Notes: generated by a model from the sequence alone, not told the origin. Counted from the stretch's first letter, positions 3,658 through 43,424 are shown. The stretch is 64,000 nt of DNA from Nitrospirota bacterium (GCA_039715075.1 JBDLIC010000003.1:7-64006); one strand, 5' to 3'. Made by a program: numbers and translations.

Positions 3658-4692
3658 ATGACAGAGCTACATTTTAAAAGGACCAACAATTCAGTTGACG
3701 AGGCTATAGACAGCTTGATCGGTATGGTTGACGGCATTGAAGAACCGGGACTGATGCGTGAGATGATAATCGCCGCTCTCAAGGCCGGCCAGGAAAAACA
3801 GAACAGGGCGGACCTGAAGCTTATGAATGCCACTATGAAAGAAATGCGCTTTACAGGGAAAATATTCGGGCCCTATCGTAATGTGCGAAAAGTTACTGTC
3901 TTTGGCTCTGCCCGGACCCGGCCGGAAGAACCGATTTATGAAATGGCCCGTCTGTTTGGAGAGAAACTGGCAGGCGCTGGGTACATGGTTATAACAGGGG
4001 GCGGATCGGGTATAATGCAGGCTGCAAATGAGGGTGCCGGACCAGAGCATTCATTTGGCGTTAATATTATGCTGCCCTTTGAACAGCAGCCGAACCCGGT
4101 ACTTATAGGCAATCCCCGGCTTATCACATTTAAATATTTTTTCAACAGAAAGGTTGCCTTCCTTAAGGAAGCTGACGCAGTCGCGCTGTTTCCGGGAGGA
4201 TTCGGTACGCTTGATGAGGCAATGGAGACACTCACATTATTGCAGAACGGGAAAAACCTGCCCCTTCCGCTATTACTCATAGAAGAACCTGATGGCACCT
4301 ACTGGGATCGGTGCATCCGTTTTTTTAAAAAGGAACTTCTCGAGCCGAACTATATAAGTGATGGTGATTTTGATCTGTTTGAATGTGTTCATTCGGTTGA
4401 TGAGGCCATAGCGAGGATTAACCACTTTTACAGCCGTTATCACAGTATGCGGTATGTGAACGCGAAGCTGGTGATAAGGCTTTTATCTCCCCTGGACGGG
4501 TACTCTGTCGGGAAACTTACTGAAGATTTTACTGATATTCTCAATCCAGGCAGCAGGATTGAGCTCTCGGAGCCGCTGCCTCAAGAAGCTGATGAACCGG
4601 AGATCAATGACCTGTCGCGCATTATAGTAGATTTCAATCTTTCGGACTTTGGAAGGTTAAGGGCTCTTATCAATGAAATCAATGATTTCTAG
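3658..4692 (+). CDS. LOG/TIGR00730-family (PpnN-like) nucleotide nucleosidase with C-terminal extension
   Basis: GGGSGIMQAANEGA and PGGFGTLDE motifs; start moved to ATG 3658, behind a GGAGAGG RBS. Confidence 0.75.
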   Translation: MTELHFKRTNNSVDEAIDSLIGMVDGIEEPGLMREMIIAALKAGQEKQNRADLKLMNATMKEMRFTGKIFGPYRNVRKVTVFGSARTRPEEPIYEMARLFGEKLAGAGYMVITGGGSGIMQAANEGAGPEHSFGVNIMLPFEQQPNPVLIGNPRLITFKYFFNRKVAFLKEADAVALFPGGFGTLDEAMETLTLLQNGKNLPLPLLLIEEPDGTYWDRCIRFFKKELLEPNYISDGDFDLFECVHSVDEAIARINHFYSRYHSMRYVNAKLVIRLLSPLDGYSVGKLTEDFTDILNPGSRIELSEPLPQEADEPEINDLSRIIVDFNLSDFGRLRALINEINDF

Positions 4693-4693
4693 T

Positions 4694-4781
4694 GCGGAAG
4701 TTCGAAAGCGCGGAAGTTTAAAGACAACAAAGGCGACCCTTAGGGTCGCCCTTTTTTTTAACTTCCGCGCTTCCGCGCTTT
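4694..4781. repeat. Nested-palindrome repeat element with bidirectional terminator core, copy 1
   Basis: Outer arms gcggaagtt.../...aacttccgcgc enclose ggcgaccc-tta-gggtcgcc + T8; second copy at 11281..11366; lies between convergent genes. Confidence 0.85.
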
Positions 4782-4786
4782 CCCAC

Positions 4787-6316
4787 TTACCCGCTGTCTT
4801 TACTGTTTCTTCCGTAAATCCGGGTTGTTTCTGTTAATTCATTTATTAGAGAAGGAGAAAGCTGTTCAGAGGTGAGCCTCCATTGCCAGTTTCCTGTTGG
4901 GCTTGCAGGAAGGTTCATTCTGTCCTTTTCGCCCAGACCCAGGATGTCCTGCATGGGTATAATAACGATGTCAGCAACAGACATCATGGCGAGTCTGATG
5001 ATCTCCTTATGTATTGTTTTTTCAGTTACATCCCTGCCTAAATAGTTGGAGATCCTTTTTTTGCCTTCTGGATTCAGTTCCTTGCGAAACCAGCCTTTAA
5101 TAGTATTGTTGTCATGTGTTCCTGTGTAGACAATACAGTTCTTCTTATGGTTATGAGGGGCGTATGGATTGGTCGGGAGATCATCTCCAAAGGCGAAAAG
5201 CAGCACCTTCATTCCGGGGAAACTGAAATTTTTCATGACATCCCTGACATCAGGAGTAATGACCCCCAGGTCTTCGGCAATAATGAAGATATCCGGGAAA
5301 TGTTTCAGCAGAGTGTTGAAAAAATCCTTTGCAGGCGCCTGTACCCATTTGCCGTTTATGGCGGTCTTTTCGCTCGAATGCACCTCCCAGTAACCGACAA
5401 ACCCCCTGAAGTGGTCAAGCCTGAACATATGAAAAAGTTTGAGGTTATGTTCGACCCGTCGTATCCACCATGAATATCTGGTTTTCTTTAAAACATCCCA
5501 GTTGTAAACCGGATGGCCCCACAGCTGGCCTGTTGAGCTGAAGTAATCAGGTGGGACACCCGCTACATACACAGGCTTTTTGTCTTTATCGAGACTGAAG
5601 ATCTCCGGGTTTGCCCAGACATCCGCGCTGTCGTAATTGACATAAATAGGGATGTCCCCGAATATCTTTATCCCTTTACTTTCACAGTAAGTCATTAATT
5701 GAGACCATTGAGTGAAAAACACATACTGAAGAAATTTCTCTTTTAATATGTGGGTGCCAAGTTTTTCCGAATATTCAGCAAGAGCGCTTTTTTTTCTGTC
5801 CCGGAGTTCGCCTGGCCATTCGCTCCATACTATTCCGTCAAGATGGTTTTTTATTGAAATAAAAAGAGTGTAATCATCCAGCCAGTGCGCGTTCTCATTA
5901 CAGAACCTCTGGAACTCCTTATTGCTCTGCAGTTTTGCGCTGTTCTTTTCATATGTCTGATCAAACAGGTTGTTTTTGAACTTGATAACAGCATCATAAT
6001 CGACCCTGCCTGCAGGAAAGGAGGGGATGTTTTTAATGTCCTCTGAAGATAAAAGTCCATGATTTACCATCTGATCGGGACTTATTAATAGATGATTGCC
6101 GGCAAAAGCGGAAAAGCTGCTGTAGGGAGAATTGCCGTATGCAGGACAGGTTATATTCAAAGGGAGTATCTGCCAGTATTTCTGGTTTGACTCAGCAAGA
6201 AAATCAGCGAACTTGTATGCACTATTTCCCATGTCTCCAATGCCGTACGGTGAGGGCAGGGAGGTTAGATGCAGGAGTAATCCGCTGCCTCTTTTATTTG
6301 AACTGTTTTTGCCCAT
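4787..6316 (-). CDS. malQ: 4-alpha-glucanotransferase (amylomaltase, GH77)
   Basis: N-terminal GLLLHLTSLPSPYGIGDMG signature and full-length GH77-like sequence. Confidence 0.9.
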   Translation of the reverse strand: MGKNSSNKRGSGLLLHLTSLPSPYGIGDMGNSAYKFADFLAESNQKYWQILPLNITCPAYGNSPYSSFSAFAGNHLLISPDQMVNHGLLSSEDIKNIPSFPAGRVDYDAVIKFKNNLFDQTYEKNSAKLQSNKEFQRFCNENAHWLDDYTLFISIKNHLDGIVWSEWPGELRDRKKSALAEYSEKLGTHILKEKFLQYVFFTQWSQLMTYCESKGIKIFGDIPIYVNYDSADVWANPEIFSLDKDKKPVYVAGVPPDYFSSTGQLWGHPVYNWDVLKKTRYSWWIRRVEHNLKLFHMFRLDHFRGFVGYWEVHSSEKTAINGKWVQAPAKDFFNTLLKHFPDIFIIAEDLGVITPDVRDVMKNFSFPGMKVLLFAFGDDLPTNPYAPHNHKKNCIVYTGTHDNNTIKGWFRKELNPEGKKRISNYLGRDVTEKTIHKEIIRLAMMSVADIVIIPMQDILGLGEKDRMNLPASPTGNWQWRLTSEQLSPSLINELTETTRIYGRNSKDSG

Positions 6317-11280: not shown

Positions 11281-11366
11281 GCGCGGAAGTTCGGAAGCGC
11301 GGAAGTTTAAAGATAGCAAAGGTGACCCAAAGGGTCGCTTTTTTTTAACTTCCGCGCTTCCGAACT
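11281..11366. repeat. Nested-palindrome repeat element, copy 2
   Basis: gcgcggaagttcggaagcgcggaagttt...ggtgaccc-aaa-gggtcgc + T-run...aacttccgcgcttccgaac; homologous to 4694..4781. Confidence 0.85.
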
Positions 11367-11486
11367 TATAAATAACGCTTTCCTTATAACAGGGTAAAGT
11401 TGTAAAATGTGTTCTGAATCCCCGCGAAAGCGCATTGCGATAGTCTTTTCGGATAAAAGGGATATTGATCGGAATGGAGATGATTA

Positions 11487-14338: not shown

Positions 14339-14450
14339 GAAGTAAGTGAGAAATGAGAAATAAGAAGTGAAAAATGGGAAGTAGATGTTTCAAGAGAGCT
14401 ATAGCCGGTTATTTTTTATTTCTAATTTCTGATTTCTTACTTCTCATTTC
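14339..14450. repeat. Long imperfect palindrome built from purine-rich 7-nt words
   Basis: Left arm agaagtaagtgagaaatgagaaataagaagtgaaaaa; right arm ttttttatttctaatttctgatttcttacttctcatttc. Confidence 0.8.
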
Positions 14451-22958: not shown

Positions 22959-23071
22959 ATTTTAAATAACCTGAATCGTGATTTTCTCAATGCGGAATGC
23001 GCTATACATGATAACATATCGTGCGAAGGTAATGCAGGGGGGGAATCGTGAATTACCCTGACCCCACTCAC

Positions 23072-23307
23072 AAAGGATAAAAAGAGATTGACGATTGACG
23101 AAGGGAAAGAGGAAAGGAAAATGACGATTGATGATCAAGGAATGACTAATGACGTTTTTTTACTTCGTAATTCGTAAATCGTCAATCGCTATTCGTCAAT
23201 TTCCGTTTATCTTTCCCGCTTCCGCACTTTTCTTTTTTTCTTGACACGTATCTATATTTTTCATACCATTGTTTTTGAAAAGGAGTGGGATTTCTTAGGC
23301 CCATTTT
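23072..23307. repeat. Island repeat unit copy 1: ~145-nt attgacg-word palindrome plus conserved ~90-nt module
   Basis: aaaggataaaaag..attgacgattgacgaa...ttcgtcaatttccgtttatcttt, then cccgcttccgcacttttctttttttcttgacac...gggatttcttaggcccatttt. Confidence 0.85.
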
Positions 23308-23793: not shown

Positions 23794-24016
23794 AAAAGGA
23801 TAAAAAGCGATTGACGAATAGCGATTGACGATTTACGAAGTAAAAAAAACGGCATTAGTCATTTTTCTTTCCTCTTTCCCTTCGTCATTCGTCATTCGCT
23901 ATTCGTCAATCGTCAATTTCCTTTTATCTTTCCCGCTTCCACACTTTTATTTTTTTCTTGACACATGCCTATATTTATAATATCCACTATTTTAGTGGGG
24001 GGGTCTTAGGCCCATT
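23794..24016. repeat. Island repeat unit copy 2 (palindrome core inverted relative to copy 1)
   Basis: 23836..23880 is the reverse complement of 23103..23167 apart from a 21-nt indel and point differences; same downstream module cccgcttccacactttt..cttgacac..gtcttaggcccatt. Confidence 0.85.
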
Positions 24017-24046
24017 AATACGTTATCTTTGAAGAAATATAATTAT

Positions 24047-24081
24047 TTGACTTCATATATAATGTGGGTTACTATAGCTAT
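24047..24081 (+). promoter_or_regulatory. Putative sigma70 promoter with overlapping palindromic operator of the RHH-mazF module
   Basis: TTGACT-N17-TACTAT; 10-bp perfect palindrome tatagctata (24072..24081) overlaps the -10. Confidence 0.45.
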
Positions 24082-24108
24082 ATATATCCACATAACTTGG
24101 AGGTGTTT

Positions 24109-24339: not shown

Positions 24340-24650
24340 TGAAAAGGGGAGAAGTCAGGTGGTATAAATTCAGGAATCCTGACAAAAAACGTCCAATAGT
24401 AATACTGACAAGAGATGCAATATTAGAATATTTAGGCGAGGTCACTATAGCACCAATAACATCAACTATCAGAAACATTCCAAGCGAAGTATTGCTTTCC
24501 ACTCAGGATGGAATGAAGAATGATTGTGCCATTAACTGCGATCACATTCAAACAGTTTCAAAATCAAGAATTGGTTCATTAATTATTACCTTATCTAATG
24601 ATAAACTTATAGATCTCCGCAGCGCTATATGCTTTACATTAAGTATTTAA
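24339..24650 (+). CDS. mazF: MazF/PemK-family endoribonuclease toxin
   Basis: KRGEVRWYKF...KRPIVILT...VTIAPITST pattern; start overlaps the antitoxin stop. Confidence 0.8.
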   Translation: MKRGEVRWYKFRNPDKKRPIVILTRDAILEYLGEVTIAPITSTIRNIPSEVLLSTQDGMKNDCAINCDHIQTVSKSRIGSLIITLSNDKLIDLRSAICFTLSI

Positions 24651-24746
24651 ATAATAAAAGGAGATAACCATTAGATACTCATGAAAGCTCAGTGGTGGCA
24701 GCACCTGCTACCATTTGATATAATTATTTAGTAACTTTTTAAATAA

Positions 24747-25202
24747 ATGGGAATAAAACAACTTATAGGGCTCATAAGCATACTTCTTATTTTTCTGGGC
24801 TGTGCAACTAAATGGCATCATCTGGAAGGGCATGGTAAGGAAGTACAAAAACTTGATGTATCAAGTTGCAAAGCAGAGGCATATTCATACGCAACAGATA
24901 AATTGACCGACCCTTCACATCCAAGAGGGCCCAAAGTGTGGAAATTTGCCTTCAGACTAAATTATGACGTTCATTATCACGAATGCATGAATAACAAAGG
25001 CTGGGAGTTGGCATATTATGACGGTAATGTTAAGGATAAGCATAAGTCTGATAGCGATAATTGCACAGTTCAGGGATGGAGATACGCGAGAGATAAATTA
25101 TTCGAACCTTCGCATCCACAAGGACCCAGAGGCTGGAGATATGGCTATAAACATAATTTAAAATCTCATTATCAGGAATGTATGCAGAGCAAAGGCTGGT
25201 AA
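24747..25202 (+). CDS. Lipoprotein with internal two-fold duplication
   Basis: Lipobox IFLGC; two ~50-aa repeats each with C...DKLxxPSHPxGPxxW...HYxECMxxKGW. Confidence 0.6.
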   Translation: MGIKQLIGLISILLIFLGCATKWHHLEGHGKEVQKLDVSSCKAEAYSYATDKLTDPSHPRGPKVWKFAFRLNYDVHYHECMNNKGWELAYYDGNVKDKHKSDSDNCTVQGWRYARDKLFEPSHPQGPRGWRYGYKHNLKSHYQECMQSKGW

Positions 25203-25231
25203 AGCTGAGTAAGCTTTAAAGAATCAATTCA

Positions 25232-25285
25232 CATTAGTCATTCCTTGATCGTCAATCGTCAATTTCGTTTATCGTACCCGCTTCC
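25232..25285. repeat. Island repeat unit, partial copy
   Basis: cattagtcattccttgatcgtcaatcgtcaatttcgtttatcgtacccgcttcc; same orientation as copy 2. Confidence 0.7.
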
Positions 25286-25348
25286 TGTTTTTCGAATGTC
25301 CGAGCTTCCGGGTTGAATATAGCATGAGTACCGTGCTATCATGATAAT

Positions 25349-25642
25349 ATGATCCAGTCGTTCCGGAATAAAGGGACAGAAGATATATTTAATGGCATAA
25401 ATTCAAAGGATGTGCGAAAGATATGTCCTCAATCAATATGGAAGGTTGCTACAAGAAAGCTGGATCAACTGGATTCTGTAATAGAGCTTAATGAACTACG
25501 CATTCCCCCAAACAATAAGCTGGAGTCATTAGCAAGAGATAGAAAAGGACAATACAGCATAAGGATAAATGATCAGTATCGTATTTGTTTTATATGGAGT
25601 GATTCTGGTCCGGATAAAGTAGAAATTACTGATTATCATTGA
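25349..25642 (+). CDS. higB: HigB-family (RelE/ParE superfamily) toxin
   Basis: MIQSFRNKGTEDIF...YSIRINDQYRICF...ITDYH matches the plasmid-maintenance killer protein pattern; toxin-first gene order. Confidence 0.85.
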   Translation: MIQSFRNKGTEDIFNGINSKDVRKICPQSIWKVATRKLDQLDSVIELNELRIPPNNKLESLARDRKGQYSIRINDQYRICFIWSDSGPDKVEITDYH

Positions 25643-25664
25643 GATAATTATTAGGAGGTTAACA

Positions 25665-25982
25665 ATGGTGAGGATACCAACACATAGAGAACCGACGCAC
25701 CCGGGAGAAATGCTGCTTGAGGAGTTTCTTAATCCTATGGGCATTACTCAGAGAGAACTGGCTGAAAAGATTCATGTGCCATATCAGCGAGTAAATGAAA
25801 TCATTAATAAAAGGCGAGGCATTACACCGAGTACAGCCTTAAGGCTTGCAAAATTATTCAGAGTTTCTGAAGATTTCTGGATGAACCTTCAGTTGCGCTG
25901 GGATTTATATAAAGCAAGACTAAATGAATCAAAGGAATTGAAGGAGATTAGACCCTTAAAGCTCAAGCAGACAGCGGTTTAA
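25665..25982 (+). CDS. higA: HigA-family XRE-HTH antitoxin
   Basis: HPGEMLLEEFLNPMGITQRELAEKIHVPYQRVNEIINKRRGITPSTALRLAKLF. Confidence 0.85.
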   Translation: MVRIPTHREPTHPGEMLLEEFLNPMGITQRELAEKIHVPYQRVNEIINKRRGITPSTALRLAKLFRVSEDFWMNLQLRWDLYKARLNESKELKEIRPLKLKQTAV

Positions 25983-26033
25983 TAAAATGCCCAAGAAGGC
26001 AGTGCATTGGAACGAGTGATAAAGGGTAATTCG

Positions 26034-26150
26034 TGAATTACCCCTACACTTGAACTTACCCGCTTCCTCACTTTTCTTTTTTTCTTGACACATGCCTGTA
26101 TTTGAAATATCCTTATTTTAAGTAAAGGGGGGATTTCTTAGGCCCATTTT
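26034..26150. repeat. 20-bp palindrome plus island module copy 3
   Basis: gggtaattcgtgaattaccc, then cccgcttcctcacttttctttttttcttgacacatgcct...ggggggatttcttaggcccatttt. Confidence 0.85.
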
Positions 26151-26210
26151 CATTTATTCGTAATTCTGACCCCAAACGTTTAAAACGTTTTTTAAAAAGG
26201 AGGCGATATC

Positions 26211-26399
26211 ATGGAAGATATTCAAAAGCACACTGACTGTGATAATTTTCAAAAGCCTGAATGTCCGCATTATGACAATGGCATAATGAAGGATCTTTAT
26301 CTTATTAAGGAAGATGCCGCAAATTATTCAGGTAACTTACCTGATCGAGTTGACAATGAATTATGTAAAGAATGCTATGAATTCTCTCCTATAACTTGA
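26211..26399 (+). CDS. Small Cys4 (zinc-ribbon-like) hypothetical protein
   Basis: Strong AGGAGG RBS; Cys pairs C10/C18 and C52/C55. Confidence 0.5.
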   Translation: MEDIQKHTDCDNFQKPECPHYDNGIMKDLYLIKEDAANYSGNLPDRVDNELCKECYEFSPIT

Positions 26400-26588
26400 T
26401 GATCTTTTTAACCTGAATACAGAACGGTGAGCAATGTATGGAGTCAAATCTTTATTAGATATTTAGCAAATTCCGACATAACCTACTTGCATGCGGTGCT
26501 CCAATCCCCAAGCCGCCAGCTGATTTGGATTAAAAGGGCTGACCCCTTATCCGTTAATGGTAGAGATTAAATATAAGTGGAGGGTGAT

Positions 26589-26921
26589 ATGCAGCGTTTC
26601 AAAAAATTTATAGATCAAAGTCTTAATTCAGAAAATATAATAAACTCAGATCAATTATCTGCATTCGGGATAACATGTACAACTCTGCCGGACCCGCCGG
26701 AAGAATTTGACGAGTTTGAATTTAGAACCGGTTTTTCAGAGCAAATGGATGTTGTGATCGGGGTGGCAATAGAAATGGGGAAAGTTAAAAGGATCTTGTT
26801 GGGTTTGTCAGAAAAGAGTGACCCTGATAGTTTTATGGCTTTGTCTGAATTACAATTAGAAGAATTTTTAACGCAGAGGGGCGATCAGCTGATCGGGTTT
26901 TTTAAATTCATTACGCAATAA
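26589..26921 (+). CDS. Hypothetical protein
   Basis: GGAGGG RBS before ATG 26589; no motif recognised. Confidence 0.45.
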   Translation: MQRFKKFIDQSLNSENIINSDQLSAFGITCTTLPDPPEEFDEFEFRTGFSEQMDVVIGVAIEMGKVKRILLGLSEKSDPDSFMALSELQLEEFLTQRGDQLIGFFKFITQ

Positions 26922-26925
26922 AAAT

Positions 26926-27156
26926 ATGTCGAATGCGAAAAAGTTTATTTATAGCAATAAATTTATAGGGATTCTTCTCATCTTAACTTCTTTTATGCCT
27001 TTCATTAACGGCTTCAAAGGTGAGAGAATTGCTATCTCGGCTAGATATGGGGGCGCATTCGAAATGGAACCATGGCAAAGTATAATTATTGGATTTTGTT
27101 TTTTACTTGGCGGATTATATTTTGTAATTGATTTGAATAAAAGAAATGAAAAATGA
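26926..27156 (+). CDS. Small two-TM membrane protein
   Basis: Two hydrophobic helices; directly follows the previous ORF. Confidence 0.45.
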   Translation: MSNAKKFIYSNKFIGILLILTSFMPFINGFKGERIAISARYGGAFEMEPWQSIIIGFCFLLGGLYFVIDLNKRNEK

Positions 27157-27620
27157 GTGGCTGCGAAGGATCATATAAATCCGGTGTTAGTGAAGTTGTA
27201 CGACGTTCTGTAAGTGAAATAATAAATGAAAATATAAACATAGAGTGGACTCAAACAGGCTATAGCCGAACGGTGGACTACCCCTAGCTATAGTGCCACT
27301 CTAAGTTAGCGTTTTCCAGTAAATTCATTTTTTAAAAGGTGCACTTCTCGATAATTTATTAGGTTATGGGAGCTGGGCGCTGTTAATAGAAAATTCTTGT
27401 AGAATAGGCGGGTTTTCGTTAAAATGTAACATCTTGATTAATTGGGATTTTACAATTCTTCCCAAATTGGCAAATAGGGGAGTTTTAAACCTAATCTAAT
27501 CAGTGGATTTATTTTTGGGGTGGATGTTTGTTAATTGCATAGAGTTGAACCTACTAATTCTAAAAAAATCCGCAAAAAGCGTTATCATTAAAATAGTTTG
27601 ATAATAAATTAAGGAAATAC

Positions 27621-28640
27621 ATGGCTAATAAAGCAACAAACAAAAAACAGAAGAGCCTGGAAGAGACCCTTTGGGATTCTGCTAACAAGCTGCGTGGAAG
27701 CGTTGAACCATCAGAATACAAGCATGTGGTTCTGAGTCTTATCTTTCTGAAGTTTGCCAGTGAAAAATTTGAGCACCGGCGACAGGAACTGACTGATGAG
27801 GGGAAAGAGAAGTATCTCGATATGGTGGAATTTTACACTATGAAGAACGTTTTCTATCTTCCGGAGGAATCCCGCTGGGGCTATATCAAGAAGCACGCGA
27901 AGCAGGATGATATTGCCATCAAGATTGATACGGCTCTTCATACGGCTGAAAAGACGAACAAAGCTCTGGAAGGTGCATTACCGGACAACTATTTTTCCCG
28001 CTTGAACCTTGATGTCAGTAAACTGGCCGCATTGATAGATACAGATAAGAGTAAAGAAATCGATATTTTTAATGATGACTATCTTGCAAAGATAGAAAAG
28101 ATCAAACTGCCCAATACGAAAATTAAGCTCTTGCAGTATTTGCTGTCTAAAGCTATTGATGAATTTAAGAAGATCAATAAAATCAAAGGAATTGACTTTA
28201 CAAAAAAGTTTAATGCTTTAGTTGAGCAATACAATGACAGGAAAGAGCAGGATGTTTTGGTCAGTAATGTGCTTGAAGATTTCACAGGAGAAATTATTGA
28301 TCTATTTCATGCCATGAAGAAAGAGAAGGAATCTTTTGGTGATATGGGGATCGATCTTGAAGAGAAGGCTTTTTATGACATCCTCAAAGCACTGACTATT
28401 AAGTATGATTTTGAATACCCCGAGGACAAACTACTGAAATTGGCAAAGGGAGTAAAAAAGGTTGTTGACGATAAAGCGAAATATACAGACTGGAGCCATC
28501 GCGATGACATTAAAGCTGAACTAAAGGCGGATCTGATCATCCTTTTGGCAGAGAATGGCTACCCTCCCGTAGACCGGGATGAAGTGTATAAAGAAATCTT
28601 TGAGCAGGCTGAGAATTTTAAGAAGTATCAGGGAAAATAA
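27621..28640 (+). pseudogene. In-frame chimera of HsdM N-terminal domain and HsdR C-terminal domain (type I R-M remnant)
   Basis: N-terminal ~140 aa look like HsdM_N (LEETLWDSANKLRGSVEPSEYKHVVLSLIFLKF); the rest resembles the HsdR C-terminal helical domain (LVEQYNDRKEQ...EEKAFYDIL); no methylase, S or helicase/nuclease sequence. Confidence 0.6.
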
Positions 28641-28718
28641 TGGGTGGTATCATTACCTGTTCTCCTCAATATTTGATGTGTTTCCCATTTTTAGGTAAAA
28701 TTTTCTTAGAGATCCTAT

Positions 28719-28931
28719 ATGAAAAGACAATTACTATATTTAGCGCTTATTTGTGTTGTCCCGGCAATACTGTATTTCCTATCACTGGAGAAGGTCATTC
28801 CAATGCCTGCTGATGATGCTCATGCAAACCTTACGGAAATCGCCCAGTGTTTCGAGTGTCACGGCGAAGGCATGGAATATGCCCGCAAAAAAGAGCATCC
28901 ACCAAAAGACCAGTGCTTTAAGTGTCATTAA
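28719..28931 (+). CDS. Small membrane-anchored diheme c-type cytochrome
   Basis: N-terminal TM helix; two CxxCH motifs (CFECH, CFKCH). Confidence 0.65.
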   Translation: MKRQLLYLALICVVPAILYFLSLEKVIPMPADDAHANLTEIAQCFECHGEGMEYARKKEHPPKDQCFKCH

Positions 28932-28990
28932 AAATGCGGTAGTCAAAAATTGTGTTTACAATATTTGTAAAGAGAACTATTGACTAATTA

Positions 28991-29033
28991 ATTTTCATTA
29001 AATATGGGGCTCTGCCCCATATTTAATGAAAAT
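28991..29033. repeat. Perfect 20-bp-stem palindrome
   Basis: attttcattaaatatggggc-tct-gccccatatttaatgaaaat. Confidence 0.95.
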
Positions 29034-29119
29034 CTATCAATTACTTAAATATATAGACAGCACCTCTAAACAGGTGCTATAATAAAACCAATTAACAATA
29101 CCAGTAAGGAGGTTCGAAT

Positions 29120-29425
29120 ATGGGAACTAAATTTTCCGAAGATATAATCCCGCTAGGTGACCTAAAGGTGAATCCCGGTAAAGTTGTTTCTCATGTGAAT
29201 GAGACGCACAGGCCGGTACTGCTGACCAGCAGAGGACGGGGGGTGGCTGTAGTACAATCACTTAGCGACTATGAGGATGAGACTGAGAAGCGTGTTTTTA
29301 TGCAGGATATAGTAGAGGGATTAATGGACCTTGAAGAAGGCAGGGAACTTTCACTGAAGGATGTAAAGAAGCGTCTGCGTATTGTCCGCATCTGGAGAAG
29401 CGAAAGACATCTGAAAAAGCCATGA
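29120..29425 (+). CDS. Phd/YefM-family antitoxin (orphan)
   Basis: GGAGG RBS; LGDLKVNPGKVVSHVNETHRPVLLTSRGRGVAVVQSLSDYE; no intact toxin gene downstream. Confidence 0.7.
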   Translation: MGTKFSEDIIPLGDLKVNPGKVVSHVNETHRPVLLTSRGRGVAVVQSLSDYEDETEKRVFMQDIVEGLMDLEEGRELSLKDVKKRLRIVRIWRSERHLKKP

Positions 29426-29489
29426 CTCCTGCTTCTGTAAGCTTCCCCCTTAAGTCGATAGTTCTAAATTAGATTTCCCGGGAGATTGT

Positions 29490-29783
29490 CTATTGATCCT
29501 TTTTTGTACGATTTGGAATCACAAAAAGTATTATCAGTCCAATGAAACTTAATAAACCCAATAAAGCAAAAGAATCGTGATAGCCTTTTCCTGTTGCCAT
29601 GTGATAACAACCGAAAAAGAAAATAACAACCCCCACAATATATGTCGCCGTAGAAATGTATTCGTAATTTCCCCCCAGCTGAAAAAGAATATCAAAAAAG
29701 TACCCCATAAAAGCTACAAGAAAACCAATGCCTGCAAGCTGAGTCCCTTGTTTATATTTCTTATTCACAATCTCCACTTTCAA
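29490..29783 (-). CDS. Small membrane protein (3 TM)
   Basis: Hydrophobic helices; AT-rich; downstream of the transglutaminase-like gene. Confidence 0.5.
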   Translation of the reverse strand: MKVEIVNKKYKQGTQLAGIGFLVAFMGYFFDILFQLGGNYEYISTATYIVGVVIFFFGCYHMATGKGYHDSFALLGLLSFIGLIILFVIPNRTKKDQ

Positions 29784-29849
29784 ACGTCAGCTTTCATATT
29801 TAATCTTAATCTCTCCAAACTTGTTTTTATATTCGATGAAGGTGCTGCT

Positions 29850-30224
29850 CTATTCTCTACTTTTTCTTACAGGTATAATACCCTTTTTTAGCAACTTACA
29901 AAGTATGGGAACTTCCAAACCACTTATTAAAAAGGAATCCCCAAAGGTAGCCATATGCCAATAAAATAAATTCTCATTTGTCTTGGTCATTTTTAATAAC
30001 AAAGTATCTAGAACGATGTTTGGGTCATACTGAATAGCTGTAAATCCTTCGTGATAAGCAAGGTAACAATTTATTGCGACACTGGTTAAAACAAAAATCA
30101 TCCCGATAATTGTAATTATAAATGTCCAGAGTATGGATTTTTTGCAAATAGTTGTACGACAATCAAGGATACAAATAGTCCAGATGAAGAGATATCCCCA
30201 AAAAACAATTTGATATTTATTCAT
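29850..30224 (-). CDS. Small membrane protein (about 4 TM)
   Basis: Hydrophobic helices; starts 9 nt after the stop of the 1055-aa gene. Confidence 0.5.
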   Translation of the reverse strand: MNKYQIVFWGYLFIWTICILDCRTTICKKSILWTFIITIIGMIFVLTSVAINCYLAYHEGFTAIQYDPNIVLDTLLLKMTKTNENLFYWHMATFGDSFLISGLEVPILCKLLKKGIIPVRKSRE

Positions 30225-38060: not shown

Positions 38061-38714
38061 CTATTTCTCCTTCTTTAATTTTCCCATGATCCTCTCAACC
38101 ACCTCTTCTATAGTCAGGCTTGTTGAATCTATATCTATCATATCATCTGTTTTTTCCAGGGGAGAACTTTCCCGGGAAGAATCCCTTGAGTCCCTTTTTT
38201 TTATGTCTTCAATAGTCTGTTCTATTGTTATATCAGGGTCTTTAAGCTTCAGTTCCTCAAACCTTCTTCTTGCCCTTTCTTCTATGCCTGCATCAAGGAA
38301 AAACTTATTTTCCGTTTCCGGGAAGATAGTTGTGCCCGTGTCCCTTCCCTCAATTACAACCCTGCCTTTCATGCAGATGTCTCTCTGCAGGGGAAAGAGA
38401 CCTTTTCTTACAACAGGCCTGGCTGAAACCTTTGAACTTAATTCCCCGATTTCAGCAGTCCTGATCTCCTTCGAAACATCGATGGCGTCCACAAAGATCT
38501 TATCATCAGTGAATGTTATGCTGATTTGATCTAAAACCTTTTTGAGATCATTGTCACTTTCAGGGTCAATGTTTTCCTGTTTTGCCTTCCATGCAACAGC
38601 CCTGTAAAGGGCGCCGGTATCAAGGTAGCTGTAACCGAGTCTCTTTGCGACAATTCTTGCAACCGTTCCTTTACCTGACCCGGAAGGGCCGTCTATTGTA
38701 ATTACGTTTTTCAT
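38061..38714 (-). CDS. cmk: Cytidylate kinase
   Basis: ITIDGPSGSGKGT P-loop; start moved to MKNVITIDG because the upstream track codons lie in the repeat element. Confidence 0.88.
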   Translation of the reverse strand: MKNVITIDGPSGSGKGTVARIVAKRLGYSYLDTGALYRAVAWKAKQENIDPESDNDLKKVLDQISITFTDDKIFVDAIDVSKEIRTAEIGELSSKVSARPVVRKGLFPLQRDICMKGRVVIEGRDTGTTIFPETENKFFLDAGIEERARRRFEELKLKDPDITIEQTIEDIKKRDSRDSSRESSPLEKTDDMIDIDSTSLTIEEVVERIMGKLKKEK

Positions 38715-38726
38715 ATAAATACAATA

Positions 38727-38807
38727 GGGGTCGAGGATTCGAGGGGTCAAGGGTTCAAGTGAAAGACCTCTAACAAAGCTCCCTTGAACCCTCGAACCCT
38801 TGACCCC
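38727..38807. repeat. Palindrome built from 8-nt words (gaggattc/gaggggtc/aagggttc), family member 1
   Basis: ggggtcgaggattcgaggggtcaagggttcaagtgaaag ... cccttgaaccctcgaacccttgacccc. Confidence 0.85.
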
Positions 38808-38813
38808 TTTTTC

Positions 38814-40136
38814 TTACGTTTGTAATCCTTCCAGCATATCGATAAATCCCGGAAAGGAGGTATTCACACAATCCGTGTCAGTAACGACCGTCTCGCCGTT
38901 GGCAGTAAGCCCGGCTATTATCATGGACATGGCTATTCTGTGGTCCCCGTAACTCTGTACAGTTGCGGGGGACAGATCTTCTTGTCCCTCGATAACAAGG
39001 CCGTCATCAAGCTCTTTTATGTTAACTCCCATTTTTCTTAGTTCAGCGGTCATTGCCGCTATCCTGTCAGATTCTTTTACCCTTAGTTCCTGTGCCCCGG
39101 TTATCGTTGTTTTTCCTTCAGCCTTTGCAGCTGCAACGCAGAGTATCGGGAACTCGTCAATAGCACTTACAAATACGTCACTTCCAAAATCCTTGCCTGA
39201 GGTTACCCCTTTAAGGCTGCTATGTTTTACGCGGACATCAGCAACATGTTCCCCTGATTGCACCTGTTCGTTTTCGAGTTTGATATCAGCCCCCATTTTT
39301 TCAAGGATATTCAGGAGGCCGCTCCTCGTTGGATTTATTCCTGCGTTCCTCACGATTATCTCAGAGCCCGGGACAAGTAAACCGGCAACAATGAAAAAAG
39401 CAGCTGAAGAGAAATCTCCCGGTACGGTTATGTCCATGGGGTTGAGTCTGGCAATCCCTTTTACGCTTACCTTTTGCCCTGAAGTCGTGACCTCAACACC
39501 GGCAGCCTTGAGCATCCTTTCGGTATGGTCTCTTGACCTGACAGGTTCGAGTACAGATGTTTCTCCATTGCAGTAAAGCCCTGCGAGAAGCACCGCTGAT
39601 TTAACCTGCGCACTGGCAATCGGTGATTCATATGCCATTGGACTTAGATTCCCGCCTTTTATATTAAGGGGAGGGCGACCCCCTTCTTCTGAACTTATTT
39701 GTGCTCCCATCTTCGTGAGCGGGTCAATGATCCTCTGCATAGGCCTCTTCAGAAGAAACCTGTCACCCGTCAGCGTAGAAGAAAACGGCTGGCCTGCAAG
39801 CACCCCGCTCATAAGCCTCATCGTGGTCCCTGAATTCCCGCAGTCAACAGCCTCATCCGGCTGGCTGAGCCCCGTCAACCCGTTACCATTAATTATTATC
39901 TCATTATTCCGGATTCTGACTTCTGACTTCTGACTTCTGACTTCTATTTTAACTCCCATCTGCCTGAATGCCTCAAGCGTTCTCAGCGGGTCTTCTGCCT
40001 GCAGAAAATTTCTGACAACACTTTTACCTTCAGCCAGTGAAGAAAGCATGATCGCGCGGTGGGAAATTGATTTGTCCGGGGATGCGGTGATCTCTCCGCG
40101 TAAAGGGCCTTTATGTTTTATACTAATCTGACTCAA
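38814..40136 (-). CDS. aroA: 3-phosphoshikimate 1-carboxyvinyltransferase (EPSP synthase)
   Basis: Full-length AroA-like (LAEGKS, GNSGTTMRL, ELRVKESDRI). Confidence 0.92.
   Translation of the reverse strand: MSQISIKHKGPLRGEITASPDKSISHRAIMLSSLAEGKSVVRNFLQAEDPLRTLEAFRQMGVKIEVRSQKSEVRIRNNEIIINGNGLTGLSQPDEAVDCGNSGTTMRLMSGVLAGQPFSSTLTGDRFLLKRPMQRIIDPLTKMGAQISSEEGGRPPLNIKGGNLSPMAYESPIASAQVKSAVLLAGLYCNGETSVLEPVRSRDHTERMLKAAGVEVTTSGQKVSVKGIARLNPMDITVPGDFSSAAFFIVAGLLVPGSEIIVRNAGINPTRSGLLNILEKMGADIKLENEQVQSGEHVADVRVKHSSLKGVTSGKDFGSDVFVSAIDEFPILCVAAAKAEGKTTITGAQELRVKESDRIAAMTAELRKMGVNIKELDDGLVIEGQEDLSPATVQSYGDHRIAMSMIIAGLTANGETVVTDTDCVNTSFPGFIDMLEGLQT
39914..39946. repeat. Heptamer tandem repeat (ttctgac x4.7) inside the aroA coding sequence
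   Basis: ttctgacttctgacttctgacttctgacttcta; encodes IEVRSQKSEVRIR on the minus strand. Confidence 0.95.
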
Positions 40137-40977
40137 CTAACTTTTTTGCCTCTTTTGCCCTTTTGAATTCTTTCTCGAGACCTGTCCAGTCCGATGCTTC
40201 TATAAAATCTGTCATCTTTGCTATTGAAGAGGAGAACTTTTTGAGGGTTTTCAGCAACTCTTCTCTGTTGCAGGCGCATATGTCCCTCCAGAGCTCTGTG
40301 GGACTCAGTGCAATTCTTGTCATATCCTTAAGCCCTTTGCCCCCGTGTTGAAGTATGTTATCTTCTACATCCGAAATGGTATTTACCAGCGCATAAGCAA
40401 CAACATGCGGAAGGTGGCTTACTGCAGCGAACACGAGATCGTGATGTTCGGGACTCATGACTACGGTATCTGTCCCGATGAAATTCCAGAGGTCGATGAC
40501 CTTAATAAGGGCATCCCTGTCCGTATTATCATTCGGGGTGATGATACATCTGGCATTATCGAACAGGTCTGCGGTTGCTGCATCAACACCTGAGCACTCT
40601 TTGCCTGCAATGGGATGTCCTCCTACAAAGTGCACTCCATCAGGGACCAGGTTCTCTATCTGCTTCATGATCCCGGCTTTTACGCTTCCTACATCAGTTA
40701 CTATCGTACCGGGGGCCAAATCATCCTTTATGCTCTTCATGATTTGCTCAAAGTAGCCTGCTGAGGAGGCAAGAAGGACGAGGTCCGCGTCTTTTATCCC
40801 TTCAGCATGGAGCGTAGTATGAGCATCGATAACACCCATGCCTTTTGCCTTCAGGAGGTTGTTTTCATTTCTGCCTATCCCGGTTATCCTGCCGTTAAAG
40901 CCGCGTCTTTTTAATGCGAGGGCAAAAGAACTGCCGATAAGCCCGACACCTATAATTGTAATGTTTTTAAAATCCAT
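40123..40977 (-). CDS. tyrA: Prephenate dehydrogenase
   Basis: IIGVGLIGSSFALAL Rossmann motif, GGHPIAG; 14-nt overlap with aroA. Confidence 0.88.
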   Translation of the reverse strand: MDFKNITIIGVGLIGSSFALALKRRGFNGRITGIGRNENNLLKAKGMGVIDAHTTLHAEGIKDADLVLLASSAGYFEQIMKSIKDDLAPGTIVTDVGSVKAGIMKQIENLVPDGVHFVGGHPIAGKECSGVDAATADLFDNARCIITPNDNTDRDALIKVIDLWNFIGTDTVVMSPEHHDLVFAAVSHLPHVVAYALVNTISDVEDNILQHGGKGLKDMTRIALSPTELWRDICACNREELLKTLKKFSSSIAKMTDFIEASDWTGLEKEFKRAKEAKKLVESD

Positions 40978-40989
40978 AATATTAAAAAA

Positions 40990-41086
40990 GGGTTCCAGGA
41001 TTCAAGGATCCAAGGGTTCAAGTGAATTTTTTTGTACGTTTTCTTTTTTCACTTGACCCCTTGGATCCTCGACCCCTTGAATCCTC
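40990..41086. repeat. 8-nt-word palindrome, family member 2
   Basis: gggttccaggattcaaggatccaagggttcaagtgaa ... ttcacttgaccccttggatcctcgaccccttgaatcctc. Confidence 0.9.
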
Positions 41087-41154
41087 AATACATAAGGTTC
41101 AAAATGAAGAACAATAATTATAAATAAACTGAATGAGAAAATTCCTGTATTTAT

Positions 41155-42231
41155 TTATGGTATAAATTTCCTTAATGCTGCTATAAGTTTTTTATTTTCA
41201 TCAGGAAGACCGATAGTTACCCTGATCTCTGAAGGGCCCATTGGCCTGACAATTATGCCTTCTTTCAAAAGGGAATTATAGAGCCCGGCAGAATCAATCT
41301 TTTCTAAAGAAATATATATGAAGTTTGCTTCGGTAGGCACATAACCGAGTTTCAGCTCTGCAAATTCTTTGTAGAGGTACTTTTTCCCCTCCTCATTGAT
41401 TCCCACTGTTTTTTCGAGATGTTCTTTGTCAGAAAGTGCTGCAATTGCGGCTTTCTGAGCCAGTGAATTAATATTGAAGGGCTGGCGGATTTTATTCATT
41501 TCAGTGTTTATAGCAGGCTGCGAAATGCCGTACCCGATTCTCAGTCCGGCAAGGCCGTATATTTTAGAGAAGGTCCTCAAAATTAAAATATCTCTCCCCT
41601 GTTCAAGGTATTTCATGCTGTCAGCATAGGCGGGCGACATCACATACTCGTAATAGGCTTCATCGACTATAACCAGTATGCTGTCAGGGACCTTTTCCAT
41701 AAATGAATCAAACTCTGCCTTTGAATTGATTGTACCCGTGGGATTATTCGGGTTTGCTATAAAAATGATCCTGGTGCTGTCTGTTATTTTTGATGCCATC
41801 TCATCGAGGTCATGGCAGTAATCCTTTAACGGAACAATAATGTTTCTGCCCCCGGCAGCCTGGACAATAGTCGAGTAAACTACAAAGGATGGGTGTGCCA
41901 TTATTGCTTCATCTCCGGGACTAATAAAAGTCCTGACAGCGAGTTCAATGATTTCATTGGAACCGTTCCCGAATATGAGGTTGTCAGGATTGACCCGGAG
42001 CTTCTCTGATAATGCATTCTGCAGATAATAACAGCTCCCGTCAGGGTACCTGTTCAGGTCATCCAGATTATTGCGCAGGACCTCGACAGCAAGAGGCGAG
42101 GGCCCTGCCGGATTTTCATTGGAAGCAAGTTTAATTGAATCCGAGATCCCTAGCTCCCTTTCGAGTTCTTCCACCGGCTTGCCCGGGACATAGGGCTTGA
42201 TAGTGTTTATATGTTCAGGAGAATGGATCAT
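41155..42231 (-). CDS. hisC: Histidinol-phosphate/aromatic aminotransferase
   Basis: Class II aminotransferase pattern (SNENP, TFSKIYGLAGLRIGY); start moved to MIHSPEH because the upstream track codons lie inside the repeat. Confidence 0.85.
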   Translation of the reverse strand: MIHSPEHINTIKPYVPGKPVEELERELGISDSIKLASNENPAGPSPLAVEVLRNNLDDLNRYPDGSCYYLQNALSEKLRVNPDNLIFGNGSNEIIELAVRTFISPGDEAIMAHPSFVVYSTIVQAAGGRNIIVPLKDYCHDLDEMASKITDSTRIIFIANPNNPTGTINSKAEFDSFMEKVPDSILVIVDEAYYEYVMSPAYADSMKYLEQGRDILILRTFSKIYGLAGLRIGYGISQPAINTEMNKIRQPFNINSLAQKAAIAALSDKEHLEKTVGINEEGKKYLYKEFAELKLGYVPTEANFIYISLEKIDSAGLYNSLLKEGIIVRPMGPSEIRVTIGLPDENKKLIAALRKFIP

Positions 42232-42242
42232 AAAAAAATATT

Positions 42243-42351
42243 GAAGGGTTCGAGGATTCGAGGATCCGAGGGTTCGAGTGAACTGCAATATGTTATTCAA
42301 AGAATAACAGTTTTTTCACTTGACCCCTCGGACCCTTGACCCCTTGACCCC
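42243..42351. repeat. 8-nt-word palindrome, family member 3
   Basis: gaagggttcgaggattcgaggatccgagggttcgagtgaa ... ttcacttgacccctcggacccttgaccccttgacccc; inner hairpin tgttattc-aaa-gaataaca. Confidence 0.9.
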
Positions 42352-42356
42352 TTTTT

Positions 42357-43424
42357 TTATTCAGCTGAAGGATAAGACCCCAGCACCTTGAGATACAGGC
42401 ACTCTTTTGTGACCTCGTTAATGGCTTTCTTTACTCCCTTGTCTTCCATGTGACCCTCCATGTCCACAAAGAATATGTACTCCCATGCCTTTCTTCTTGA
42501 CGGCCTTGATTCTATCTTCGTCAGATTAATTTTATGCCTCGAAAATGAGCGTAATATGGAGTAGAGGGCGCCGGGCCTGTCTTTTATTGAAAACATGATC
42601 GCTGTCCTGTCCTTGCCGGTCTTTTTTGTTGACTCCTTTGCAATTACCAGGAAACGTGTGAAGTTTGTTTTATAGTCTTCGATCCCTTTTTCAATGAACT
42701 TGAGGTCATAGACTGAAGCGGCCAGTTCGCTCGCAACTGCAGCGGAAGATGCATCCTTTGAAACACGTTTGGCTGCAGCCGCTGTGCTGATCTCTTCAAT
42801 AACCGGTGTGTCCGGGAAGTTGTTCTCGAGCCAGTCCCTGCTCTGCGCCCTTGCCTGGGGATGGGAATAGATTTTTTTAACGTCCTTTTTCTTCCCGGTT
42901 TTTGATAAAAGGTTATGTGATATCTCGAGCGTTATTTCAAATGCAATTTTCAGGTCTGAATCTATCAGCATATCCAGCGTGTAATTGACGACACCTTCGG
43001 TCGAATTTTCAACAGGCACCACTCCATACTGCGACCTTCCCCTGTAGACTGCCTCAAATACCGCCTTGATCGTACTCTCGGGCAGATATTCCGTTGAAGA
43101 GCCGAACTGCCTTCTGGCAGCCAGGTGCGTGAATGTCGCGGATGGTCCCAGGTATGCGACTTTTAACGGCTGCTGCAGGGAAAGAGATGCGGAGAGTATT
43201 TCTTCATAAATATGTTTGAGGGCATCAGTCGGAAAAGGTCCCGGGTTGGTCTCTTTGAGCCTGTTAAGGATTTCCTTTTCCCTTTCAGGTGAATGTATAT
43301 TCAGGTTTTTTGTCTGCTTGGCCTTACCCACGTCAAGGGCAATATTCGCCCTTTTATTTAACAGGTCGAGTATCTTGTGGTCGATGTCATCGATCTTTAC
43401 CCTCAGTTTCTTTAAGTCGCTCAT
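42357..43424 (-). CDS. pheA: Bifunctional chorismate mutase / prephenate dehydratase
   Basis: N-terminal CM helix (LRVKIDDIDHKILDLLNKR), PDT domain, C-terminal ACT (ESRP). Confidence 0.9.
   Translation of the reverse strand: MSDLKKLRVKIDDIDHKILDLLNKRANIALDVGKAKQTKNLNIHSPEREKEILNRLKETNPGPFPTDALKHIYEEILSASLSLQQPLKVAYLGPSATFTHLAARRQFGSSTEYLPESTIKAVFEAVYRGRSQYGVVPVENSTEGVVNYTLDMLIDSDLKIAFEITLEISHNLLSKTGKKKDVKKIYSHPQARAQSRDWLENNFPDTPVIEEISTAAAAKRVSKDASSAAVASELAASVYDLKFIEKGIEDYKTNFTRFLVIAKESTKKTGKDRTAIMFSIKDRPGALYSILRSFSRHKINLTKIESRPSRRKAWEYIFFVDMEGHMEDKGVKKAINEVTKECLYLKVLGSYPSAE

Follow-up and report, generated by a model that had tools for sequence, protein, structure and literature searches.

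Inverted arrays of an 8-bp word form long hairpins in the gene gaps of an aromatic amino-acid cluster of a Nitrospirota bacterium

The stretch of DNA analysed here, 64,000 nt from a Nitrospirota bacterium (GCA_039715075.1 JBDLIC010000003.1:7-64006) and hereafter called the window, carries on its minus strand a cluster of aromatic amino-acid genes in which three gene gaps are occupied by long imperfect palindromes built from an 8-nt word, RAGGRKYC. The best named relatives of its TyrA protein belong to Nitrospirae/Nitrospiraceae genome bins, and an exact look-up of this protein found no identical entry on record; judging from the sequence, the organism is probably a member of the Thermodesulfovibrionia within the Nitrospirota. 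The genes were assigned from Pfam matches and from synteny in relatives, and after cmk they are followed, also on the minus strand, by plsC, ispH, rpsA and sppA (Pfam). From the highest to the lowest coordinate, the features of the locus are:

pheA, 42357-43424, minus strand (Pfam CM_2, PDT and ACT)
element 3, 42244..42353, between pheA and hisC: arms 42244-42282 and 42315-42353, 39 nt, 79% complementary, 32-nt loop
hisC-like aminotransferase gene (hisC), 41155-42231, minus strand
AT-rich block, 41087..41154, minus strand: from the hisC stop to element 2, not part of the repeat, GGAATTTTCT..TTTATAATTATTG..TTCATTTTGAACC
element 2, 40989..41085, between hisC and tyrA: arms 40989-41026 and 41048-41085, 38 nt, 84% complementary, 21-nt T-rich loop
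tyrA, 40123-40977, minus strand
aroA, 38814-40136, minus strand
element 1, 38726..38808, between aroA and cmk: arms 38723-38753 and 38781-38811 according to the repeat finder, 31 nt, 87% complementary, 27-nt loop
cmk, 38061-38714, minus strand

The original prediction, made from the sequence alone, had placed hairpins in these three gaps, and all of them are present at positions that agree within 1-3 nt. They are imperfect palindromes of 83-110 nt, and their arms consist of three to five tandem copies of RAGGRKYC. The word structure that had been predicted is confirmed by Tandem Repeats Finder, which reported a period of 8 in all six arms (one arm is given as period 16), and by the distribution of the double word; allowing at most one mismatch, this occurs 17 times in the window against 0.34 expected from shuffles, and every one of these occurrences lies inside elements 1 to 3. 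The G-rich arm of element 1, for instance, reads GGGGTC GAGGATTC GAGGGGTC AAGGGTTC AAGTGAA and is followed by the 27-nt loop and the C-rich arm. The apex that two of the elements were said to share is also real, since elements 2 and 3 each have AAGTGAA/TTCACTT on their two arms; the corresponding motif TTCACTTGAMCCC occurs five times in the window versus 0.21 expected, that is, twice in element 2, twice in element 3 (once per arm) and once in element 1, where only one arm carries it. Elements 2 and 3 also have a common word order that includes GGATCC, a word that is rare in the family, and the loop of element 3 contains a small nested AT-rich hairpin.

Element 1 starts 5 nt past the aroA stop and ends 11 nt ahead of the cmk ATG (38714), and element 3 starts 3 nt past the pheA stop and ends 12 nt ahead of the hisC ATG (42231). 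Element 2 starts 69 nt past the hisC stop, ends 11 nt ahead of the tyrA ATG (40977), and has a U6 tract after the hairpin on the mRNA strand; on the plus strand, element 3 shows an A-run 5' and a T-run 3'. On either strand, the three elements fold much better than shuffled sequences; the RNA folds have energies of -49 to -61 kcal/mol, with z = -6.2 to -9.8, and the DNA folds have z = -5.8 to -7.3. The DNA fold of element 2 favours a slipped register.

The hairpins disturb gene annotation. The open reading frames (ORFs) 38061..38750 and 41155..42300 have TTG starts inside the hairpins, and these N-terminal extensions are indeed spurious, as had been proposed, given that Pfam matches and the lengths of homologues (358 aa, 215 aa) back a start of cmk at ATG 38714 and one of hisC at ATG 42231. 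The cmk, tyrA and hisC genes lack a Shine-Dalgarno sequence, and the idea that the hairpins replace it or couple translation was dropped because many genes of the window lack one anyway. A start-codon error of another kind was seen at the tyrA-aroA junction of L120-L125 (e.g., L120 4855-4929), where, for several relatives, the aroA start of the public gene calls lies 73 nt too far downstream; what was taken for a gap codes for the conserved AroA N-terminus (..SPDKSISHRAIM..), and the true aroA start overlaps the tyrA end, like in the window (TTG 40136).

The AT-rich block that separates hisC from element 2 is conserved in L123 (~2225-2290), L126 and L132, and it is found ahead of aroF in L120/L121 (L120 ~2790-2860). 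Its pattern, GGAATTTTC.. N ..TTTATAATTA..TTCATTTTGAACC, includes TATAAT without a mismatch as well as the inverted repeat GGAA-N2-TTCC. The block is a possible internal promoter or operator for the aro cluster; if it were one, element 2 would belong to a 5' leader.

The arms of the elements behave as interchangeable arrays of words that still pair after slipping, given that 83.6% of the positions pair in register, 75% when one arm is slid by 8 nt and 72% when it is slid by 16 nt, versus 11% when it is slid by 4 nt. The comparison with relatives leads to the same idea of a structure that changes by whole words. Syntenic operons were compared from L120, L121 and L122 (TyrA identity 94%), L126 (93%), L123 (91%), L124 and L132 (70%), L133 (66%) and L134 (65%); a metagenome scan for further relatives gave two close loci only. 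The aroA-cmk element has an ortholog in L121, which agrees with it at all 36 nt compared in the 3' arm and is displaced by a single word in the 5' arm; L120, whose TyrA protein is identical to that of L121, lacks this element. Likewise, the hairpins located between aroF and tyrA in L120 and L121 differ by exactly 28 nt, i.e., four heptamers, all of them in one arm. The loop of element 3 resembles the loop of the copy present between cmk and plsC in L120/L121. The gap that follows pheA is occupied as follows:

window: RAGGRKYC
L134: RAGGRKYC, with a 150-nt loop
L123: TCGTCAW hairpin
L120/L121/L124: CCGTGWYC/TCGTTAT hairpins
L133: AATTCAAA hairpin
L132: empty, 15 nt

The spacer around element 3 (3 + 12 nt) equals the 15-nt empty gap between pheA and hisC in L132, a lineage that also lacks a hairpin before tyrA. 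The same gaps in relatives thus hold other families, elements of other lengths or no element at all, and because varied arrays are found both after pheA and before tyrA, the occupancy of the gaps is persistent while the sequence, family and length of the arrays turn over fast.

The elements are not restricted to this locus. One genome per species was scanned for TTCACTTGAMCCCTYG, which comprises the apex and the first word, and at least 119 stretches were obtained, of which at least 70 carry three or more in-phase words and approximately 20 look like chance; hairpins with the same word and apex recur in many bins. Among the matches listed, the real elements come overwhelmingly from Deltaproteobacteria/Thermodesulfobacteriota and from Nitrospirae/Thermodesulfovibrionia bins, with scattered others. 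The family is thus widespread in Nitrospirota and Thermodesulfobacteriota. In 29 distinct RAGGRKYC hairpins the median arm is 32 nt and the median loop 30 nt (range 16-63 nt), and there are also variants with longer loops of 150-350 nt. The word logo of these hairpins is alike on both arms: position 1 is A (57%) or G (33%), position 2 is A (95%), positions 3 and 4 form a GG anchor, position 5 is G (68%) or A (31%), position 6 is T (57%) or G (43%), position 7 is T (91%), and position 8 is C. In the G-rich arm, CAAGTGAA almost invariably forms the inner word, also in copies that were found without the seed. The design can be described as inverted arrays of a degenerate 8-bp word, R-A-G-G-R-K-T-C, with an inner word that is usually AAGTGAA and a variable AT-rich loop. 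In the bin L010/L050/L061, RAGGRKYC elements occur about once per kb, and identical 30-nt loops are found there at distinct loci.

More generally, a census of hairpins in 126 loci (909 kb) revealed about 50 with a period of 7 or 8, made of many word families; the 29 distinct RAGGRKYC hairpins described above are among them. In some deltaproteobacterial bins (L102, L098, L014, L107 and L017) intergenic regions of several hundred nucleotides consist almost entirely of successive or nested arrays of different families; in places, other word hairpins lie inside the loop of a RAGGRKYC hairpin, an arrangement reminiscent of the mosaics formed by bacterial interspersed mosaic elements (BIMEs). The RAGGRKYC hairpin of some deltaproteobacterial bins (L040/L041/L079) is found between two conserved small hairpins with a TTTA loop (CCTCGCC TTTA GGCGAAG and CCATCGGC TTTA GCCGATGG), which suggests a larger composite repeat. 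The conserved flanks of the L040/L041 copies were aligned, and nothing came of the alignment.

RAGGRKYC is one of several families of the same architecture in this genome, and at least four hairpin word families were detected in the window. Apart from elements 1 to 3, the word arrays found are:

CGGAAGYK (8-nt word) hairpin, copy 1, 4691..4787: gap between a LOG-family gene and malQ
CGGAAGYK hairpin, copy 2, 11287..11367: upstream of gatB
direct AATTACG array, 12914-12947
GAGAAAT (7-nt word) hairpin, 14344..14442: between a sigma-54 response regulator gene and eamA
GATTGAC/TTCGTCA (7-nt word) hairpin, copy 1, 23080..23201
GATTGAC/TTCGTCA hairpin, copy 2, 23808..23915
perfect 7-nt tandem array, 39914..39945, minus strand: GAAGTCA x4.6 on the coding strand, inside aroA, coding for the surface-loop peptide EVRSQKSEVRIR

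Over the aligned stretch, loop included, the identity of the CGGAAGYK copies is 87%, and their likeness ends at the ends of the arms, for which reason they can be considered discrete dispersed units. Their loops show a GC stem followed by T8, and the loop of copy 1 looks like an intrinsic terminator. These copies bracket a glycogen block formed by malQ, a GH57 gene and glgB, and copy 2 comes after a truncated HDOD-like ORF (11064-11234). Regarding the GATTGAC/TTCGTCA copies, the loop at 23808-23915 is the reverse complement of the one at 23080-23201, with the first ~26 nt nearly identical, while the flanks are co-linear. These hairpins belong to a direct duplication of ~200 nt (23070-23270 and 23795-23990) located on either side of a small C_GCAxxG_C_C gene; each duplicate comprises the TTCGTCA-word hairpin and a conserved, promoter-like block, TTTCCCGCTTCC..CTTGACAC..CTATATTT..CTTAGGCCCATT. 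A third, partial copy (a half copy) is located at 25248-25300, within 25225-25330. Along the window the families appear grouped, first the two CGGAAGYK copies, then the TTCGTCA copies and then the three RAGGRKYC elements. A hand calculation for this perfect grouping gave p values from ~0.002 to 0.06, depending on the copies that are counted as independent, and the local clustering is suggestive only. By a rough count, about a quarter of the gaps of at least 60 nt in the window hold a word hairpin.

The array inside aroA shows that in this lineage word arrays occur in coding DNA too. It is present at the same codon position in every relative from L120 to L134, and the words differ (GAAGTCA, GAAGTAA, GGAGTCA, CCCTCAG and GGGCAAG/GGTCAGG), so that the loop peptide of AroA varies as well, e.g., EVRSKKLEGRSG, DRIQESGVRSQESE or ESPQPSALSSR. 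Since these arrays occupy a site that is necessarily orthologous and carry different 7-nt words, they show word turnover in situ and concerted evolution.

From these results we propose, with moderate confidence, that the elements are dispersed non-coding palindromic repeats, comparable to REPINs or to miniature inverted-repeat transposable elements (MITEs), which grow by slippage and would be copied, often locally, into short intergenic gaps that tolerate them. According to this model, the arms gain and lose whole words through slipped-strand mispairing, as the whole-word differences between strains and the pairing of arms displaced by 8 or 16 nt show. The two arms would then be kept alike by recombination or template switching inside the palindrome, and the direct evidence for recombination between arms is the loop that is flipped between the GATTGAC/TTCGTCA copies while their flanks are co-linear. 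Units would subsequently spread, often nearby, to new intergenic gaps by a trans-acting or recombinational route, in agreement with the existence of sharp-ended discrete units and of common loops. Finally, copies would survive only where they are harmless, that is, in short gaps from a few nucleotides past a stop codon to ~10-30 nt before the next start, so that the hairpins of the aro cluster would be passengers and not a purpose-built regulatory device. If transcribed, a stem-loop of -50 to -60 kcal/mol would be expected to slow 3'-to-5' exonucleases, and it may be cut by RNase III or cause partial termination. An incidental effect on mRNA, like that of repetitive extragenic palindromic (REP) sequences, is likely, because a hairpin of -50 kcal/mol would physically impede 3'-exonucleases. 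On the whole, the elements behave like selfish or neutral DNA that fills gene gaps, and so far nothing indicates a dedicated RNA switch.

Several observations weigh against this proposal. Since no transposase, REP-associated tyrosine transposase (RAYT) or other mobilising gene was found among 50 ORFs of the window scanned with Pfam, and no target-site duplication could be defined, mobility is inferred from copy similarity only. The flanks of the elements, A-rich at the 5' side and T-rich at the 3' side, prolong the palindrome in part and showed no consistent direct repeat, and the ends of the arrays are fuzzy. The loops of elements 1 to 3 are mutually unrelated. All three RAGGRKYC copies of the window lie within one 3.6-kb operon, and the gap directly upstream of tyrA holds a word array in six of the seven lineages, made of five or more families; both features could reflect a local function or selection for structure. 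In addition, the sample of other genomes was seeded with the apex motif and is therefore biased, the gene contexts were taken from a crude ORF caller, and many of the source genomes are metagenome bins. The presence of the same words and apex across phyla could also mean a conserved binding partner and not horizontal spread.

One alternative is that the hairpins are a selected RNA punctuation, kept to set the stability of mRNA segments, RNase III processing or partial termination, and in this way to tune the ratios of PheA, HisC, TyrA-AroA and Cmk. REP and BIME hairpins stabilise upstream mRNA, and the position of the elements between co-directional genes, their very stable RNA folds, the short distances that separate them from the neighbouring stop and start codons and the U6 tract that follows element 2 on the mRNA strand would all agree with such a role. 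The recurrence of an array before tyrA, together with one after pheA in most lineages, suggests a structure that is kept while its sequence turns over. Nevertheless, a series of tests showed no sign of selection on the transcribed strand. In co-directional contexts, the mismatches of the arms do not show an excess of G·U on the mRNA strand (14 G·U versus 28 A·C), so selection at the RNA level through wobble pairs is not supported, and the 10 nt that follow the hairpin contain 5.1 U on the sense strand versus 5.4 on the antisense strand. In elements 1 and 3 the T-run is found on the antisense strand. With 15 tandem, 4 divergent and 2 convergent cases, the gene-pair contexts are close to the frequencies of ordinary gene pairs, i.e., divergent and convergent gaps are also occupied, at background-like rates. 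Furthermore, L132 does without a hairpin both after pheA and before tyrA, the aroA-cmk element is present in L121 and absent from L120 despite their identical TyrA, and no window sequence matched an Rfam 15 family at the gathering score; at E values of up to 1 only sub-threshold look-alikes of microRNA precursors appeared. The role in segmental mRNA stability that had been suggested from the position of the hairpins thus gains no support from the G·U, U-richness and context tests or from the turnover in relatives, and we consider a selected RNA punctuation unlikely.

A reading of the elements as sense-strand intrinsic terminators is not supported either. A consensus scan called none of the three, and, as shown above, the sense strand has no U-tract bias. 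An intrinsic terminator has a compact GC-rich stem, a small loop and an immediate U-tract, in contrast with the stems of 31-39 bp and loops of 21-32 nt found in elements 1 to 3, of which only element 2 has the U6 on the mRNA strand. A promoter reading was also set aside; the words of the C-rich arm hold -35-like sequences (TTGACC/TTGAAT) and score as promoter-like, but the total of promoter-like matches equals the shuffle expectation. The G-rich arms have G-quadruplex potential, which was ruled out as a general principle because other word families are devoid of G-tracts. ARAGORN found no tRNA or tmRNA in the window.

A second alternative considers the words as sites on double-stranded DNA for proteins that bind cooperatively in a 7-8-bp register, the inverted arrays being operators that bracket or mark operons. 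This kind of binding is known for MetJ on 8-bp metboxes and for omega on 7-bp heptads. The tight word logo, identical on both arms, would be accounted for in this way, and the same holds for the absence of strand bias, as expected of a feature of double-stranded DNA. The same words occur in different phyla, including the class 3 word of Geobacter, MTYCTGA, which corresponds to the CTTCTGA words of this locus and of L124, and the binding of a global regulator was proposed for the Geobacter arrays by Aklujkar et al. The local clusters can also be counted in its favour, since there are three RAGGRKYC elements in the aro cluster, two CGGAAGYK copies flanking malQ-GH57-glgB and two TTCGTCA copies flanking one small gene, with the dependence of the p value on independent copies mentioned above; however, short-range copying or gene conversion explains these clusters equally well. 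Moreover, with ten or more word families per genome, equally many cognate proteins would be needed, close strains change the number and the family of the words while the genes remain unchanged, arrays are also present inside the aroA coding sequence, and the window shows no candidate regulator gene in linkage with the elements. For these reasons operator arrays seem improbable.

A broader form of this idea, to which we give still less credence, is that word arrays constitute a sequence code read by proteins, in which each 7-8-bp family is the operator of its own cooperative DNA- or RNA-binding protein, the arrays punctuate operons, and the words or the binders have spread horizontally among anaerobic phyla. 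If this were true, the arrays that bracket or punctuate the aro cluster, the genes for glycogen and a single small redox gene would act as bridged loops, insulators or translation-coupling devices, and the word hairpins would be an unrecognised, widespread layer of operon-level organisation and no junk DNA.

The least probable alternative is that each hairpin grew in place, without dispersal, with word duplication and quasi-palindrome correction enlarging an initial terminator or small inverted repeat; it would explain the whole-word length differences and register slips, the word turnover at the orthologous aroA site and the ordinary terminator hairpin enclosed by the CGGAAGYK arms, and heptamer simple repeats are known to be produced by polymerase slippage (Mrazek 2007, as cited in PMC4679880), but it does not account for the same 8-mer word and AAGTGAA inner word in many phylogenetically distant genomes, for the discrete units with common loops at unrelated loci or for the specific word order of elements 2 and 3.

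The view of the elements as dispersed palindromic repeats has a precedent. In the genome paper of Geobacter metallireducens (Aklujkar et al. 2009, PMC2700814), 24, 21 and 8 pairs of tandem octa- or heptanucleotide arrays on opposite strands were reported, with the words GTTGCTYN, TCTCCGTS[Y] and MTYCTGA for classes 1 to 3. These sites (Gmet_I1xx-I3xx) were named 'putative global regulator binding sites', and the authors hypothesised that IHF or HU binds to them (PMC2700814). They are found in intergenic gaps that include those of proB-proA, moaA-mosC and nifD-nifK (PMC2700814, Table S4), and many of them adjoin insertions of ISGme8, a member of the IS110 family (PMC2700814). Like the elements described here, the Geobacter pairs consist of three to five tandem words of 7-8 nt, matched at a variable distance by the same array on the other strand, and they were drawn as hairpins; they are also intergenic, including gaps within operons, and several word classes coexist in one genome. 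In contrast, none of the published classes has the RAGGRKYC word or the AAGTGAA apex; class 3 matches the CTTCTGA/GGAGTCAGAAT words of the aroA in-gene array and of the L124 element only. The class 4 sites of Geobacter were considered as relatives and set aside, given that they are a different, CCCTCTCCC-type repeat. In addition, the sites of G. metallireducens were described as found in its genome only, while the RAGGRKYC family spans phyla. The paired Geobacter arrays are therefore the closest published precedent, of a kind that was catalogued once and never explained. The word-repeat build, which had been called unusual, is so, though it is not unprecedented (PMC2700814). A full-text literature search for the word sequences gave unrelated primer matches only.

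The resemblance to REP sequences and BIMEs, also proposed originally, stands in part, as an analogy of structure and position. A REP unit is a short imperfect palindrome of 20-40 nt with a GTAG or CGTC tag at one end (PMC3733652). REPs, BIMEs and REPINs, known from E. coli and Pseudomonas, are, like the elements of the window, dispersed extragenic imperfect palindromes that are tolerated between the genes of operons (PMC3116915, PMC2817692, PMC3733652), and IS110-family elements target both REPs (ISPpu9; PMC8450116) and the Geobacter word pairs (ISGme8). The window holds three copies in its 64 kb, all of them extragenic and within a single 3.6-kb stretch between co-directional genes. A REPIN is a hairpin of ~100 nt formed by two inverted halves, as here, but the halves of our elements are tandem word arrays instead of REP palindromes, and except for an occasional GGATCC the words have no internal palindrome. 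Besides, copies differ here by whole-word slippage, unlike REPs, no GTAG or CGTC tag was found at the ends of the elements (..AATAGGGGTCGAGG.. and similar), and the Pfam scan of the 50 ORFs detected no RAYT, Y1_Tnp or other transposase; in REP systems, the repeats flank the gene of a cognate RAYT, a Y1 HUH transposase. Membership in the REP/BIME family is not supported.

With respect to MITEs, inverted arms of 31-39 nt with 79-87% complementarity are in agreement with this class of elements. MITEs are small and non-autonomous, have inverted ends and can be located inside operons, between genes and without disrupting them, as is the case of Chunjie of Geobacter uraniireducens. The elements differ in that no parent insertion sequence was identified in the window and, as noted above, no target-site duplication either, in that the arms are internally repetitive, and in that the conserved motif is found at the inner and not at the outer end of the arm. 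A third comparison is with the tandem heptamer arrays known as cyanobacterial short tandemly repeated repetitive (STRR) sequences, as prokaryotic long simple sequence repeats and as the TAACTGA repeats of Beggiatoaceae (PMC4679880; bioRxiv 10.1101/2022.06.06.494920). In common with the arrays described here, these have a tandem unit of 7 nt (7-8 nt in our case), are mostly intergenic, often just upstream of start codons, and occasionally genic, and show a patchy spread across phyla with no known transfer mechanism, slippage being their proposed origin. Those arrays are mainly direct and occur in other host phyla, while in the RAGGRKYC elements two inverted arrays give a long hairpin with a conserved inner word.

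The RAGGRKYC elements are a new, cross-phylum case of a known kind and not something categorically new, and they do not seem to act as regulators dedicated to the aromatic amino-acid operon. The kind was noticed once, in the supplementary figures of a genome paper of 2009 (PMC2700814). Word hairpins fill a sizeable share of the intergenic gaps in Nitrospirota and Thermodesulfobacteriota, and they corrupt automated gene calls, with starts extended into the hairpins and aroA starts mis-called in relatives. Word arrays also generate strain-level differences in length and even peptide loops in enzymes. A fixed 8-mer word and inner motif across phyla provides a handle on the spread of palindromic repeats that have no transposase of their own. 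Such arrays may serve as landing pads for IS110-type recombinases or as operator arrays, and it can be asked whether they have a role in the organisation of mRNA or of the nucleoid. As for a vehicle, element 3 gave no BLASTN match against the plasmid and phage collections, and a pattern scan of IMG/VR gave seven matches with three convincing elements, which are too few to argue for a viral vector.

Some other features of the window were recorded. The region 24000-30000 has a low GC content (about 0.37) and is rich in toxin-antitoxin modules, i.e., ribbon-helix-helix (RHH) with MazF, HigB with a helix-turn-helix (HTH) protein, and Phd; together with a fused or truncated fragment of a type I restriction-modification system (HsdM_N and T1RH-like_C), this makes it look like a small mobile or defence island. 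Two coding tandem repeats were also found. The first one, at 2787-2926, has a 33-nt unit repeated 4.2 times with 98% identity and encodes an AAEASEEGKAK-like repeat in a small ORF; the second, at 63664-63893, is formed by 33/99-nt units that encode a Gly/Met/His-rich repeat (GGYGMMGQGHM) in an ORF that runs off the end of the window. Finally, a 76-aa ORF is directly followed, at 28991-29033, by a perfect palindrome of 20 bp whose loop has 3 nt (ATTTTCATTAAATATGGGGC TCT GCCCCATATTTAATGAAAAT).

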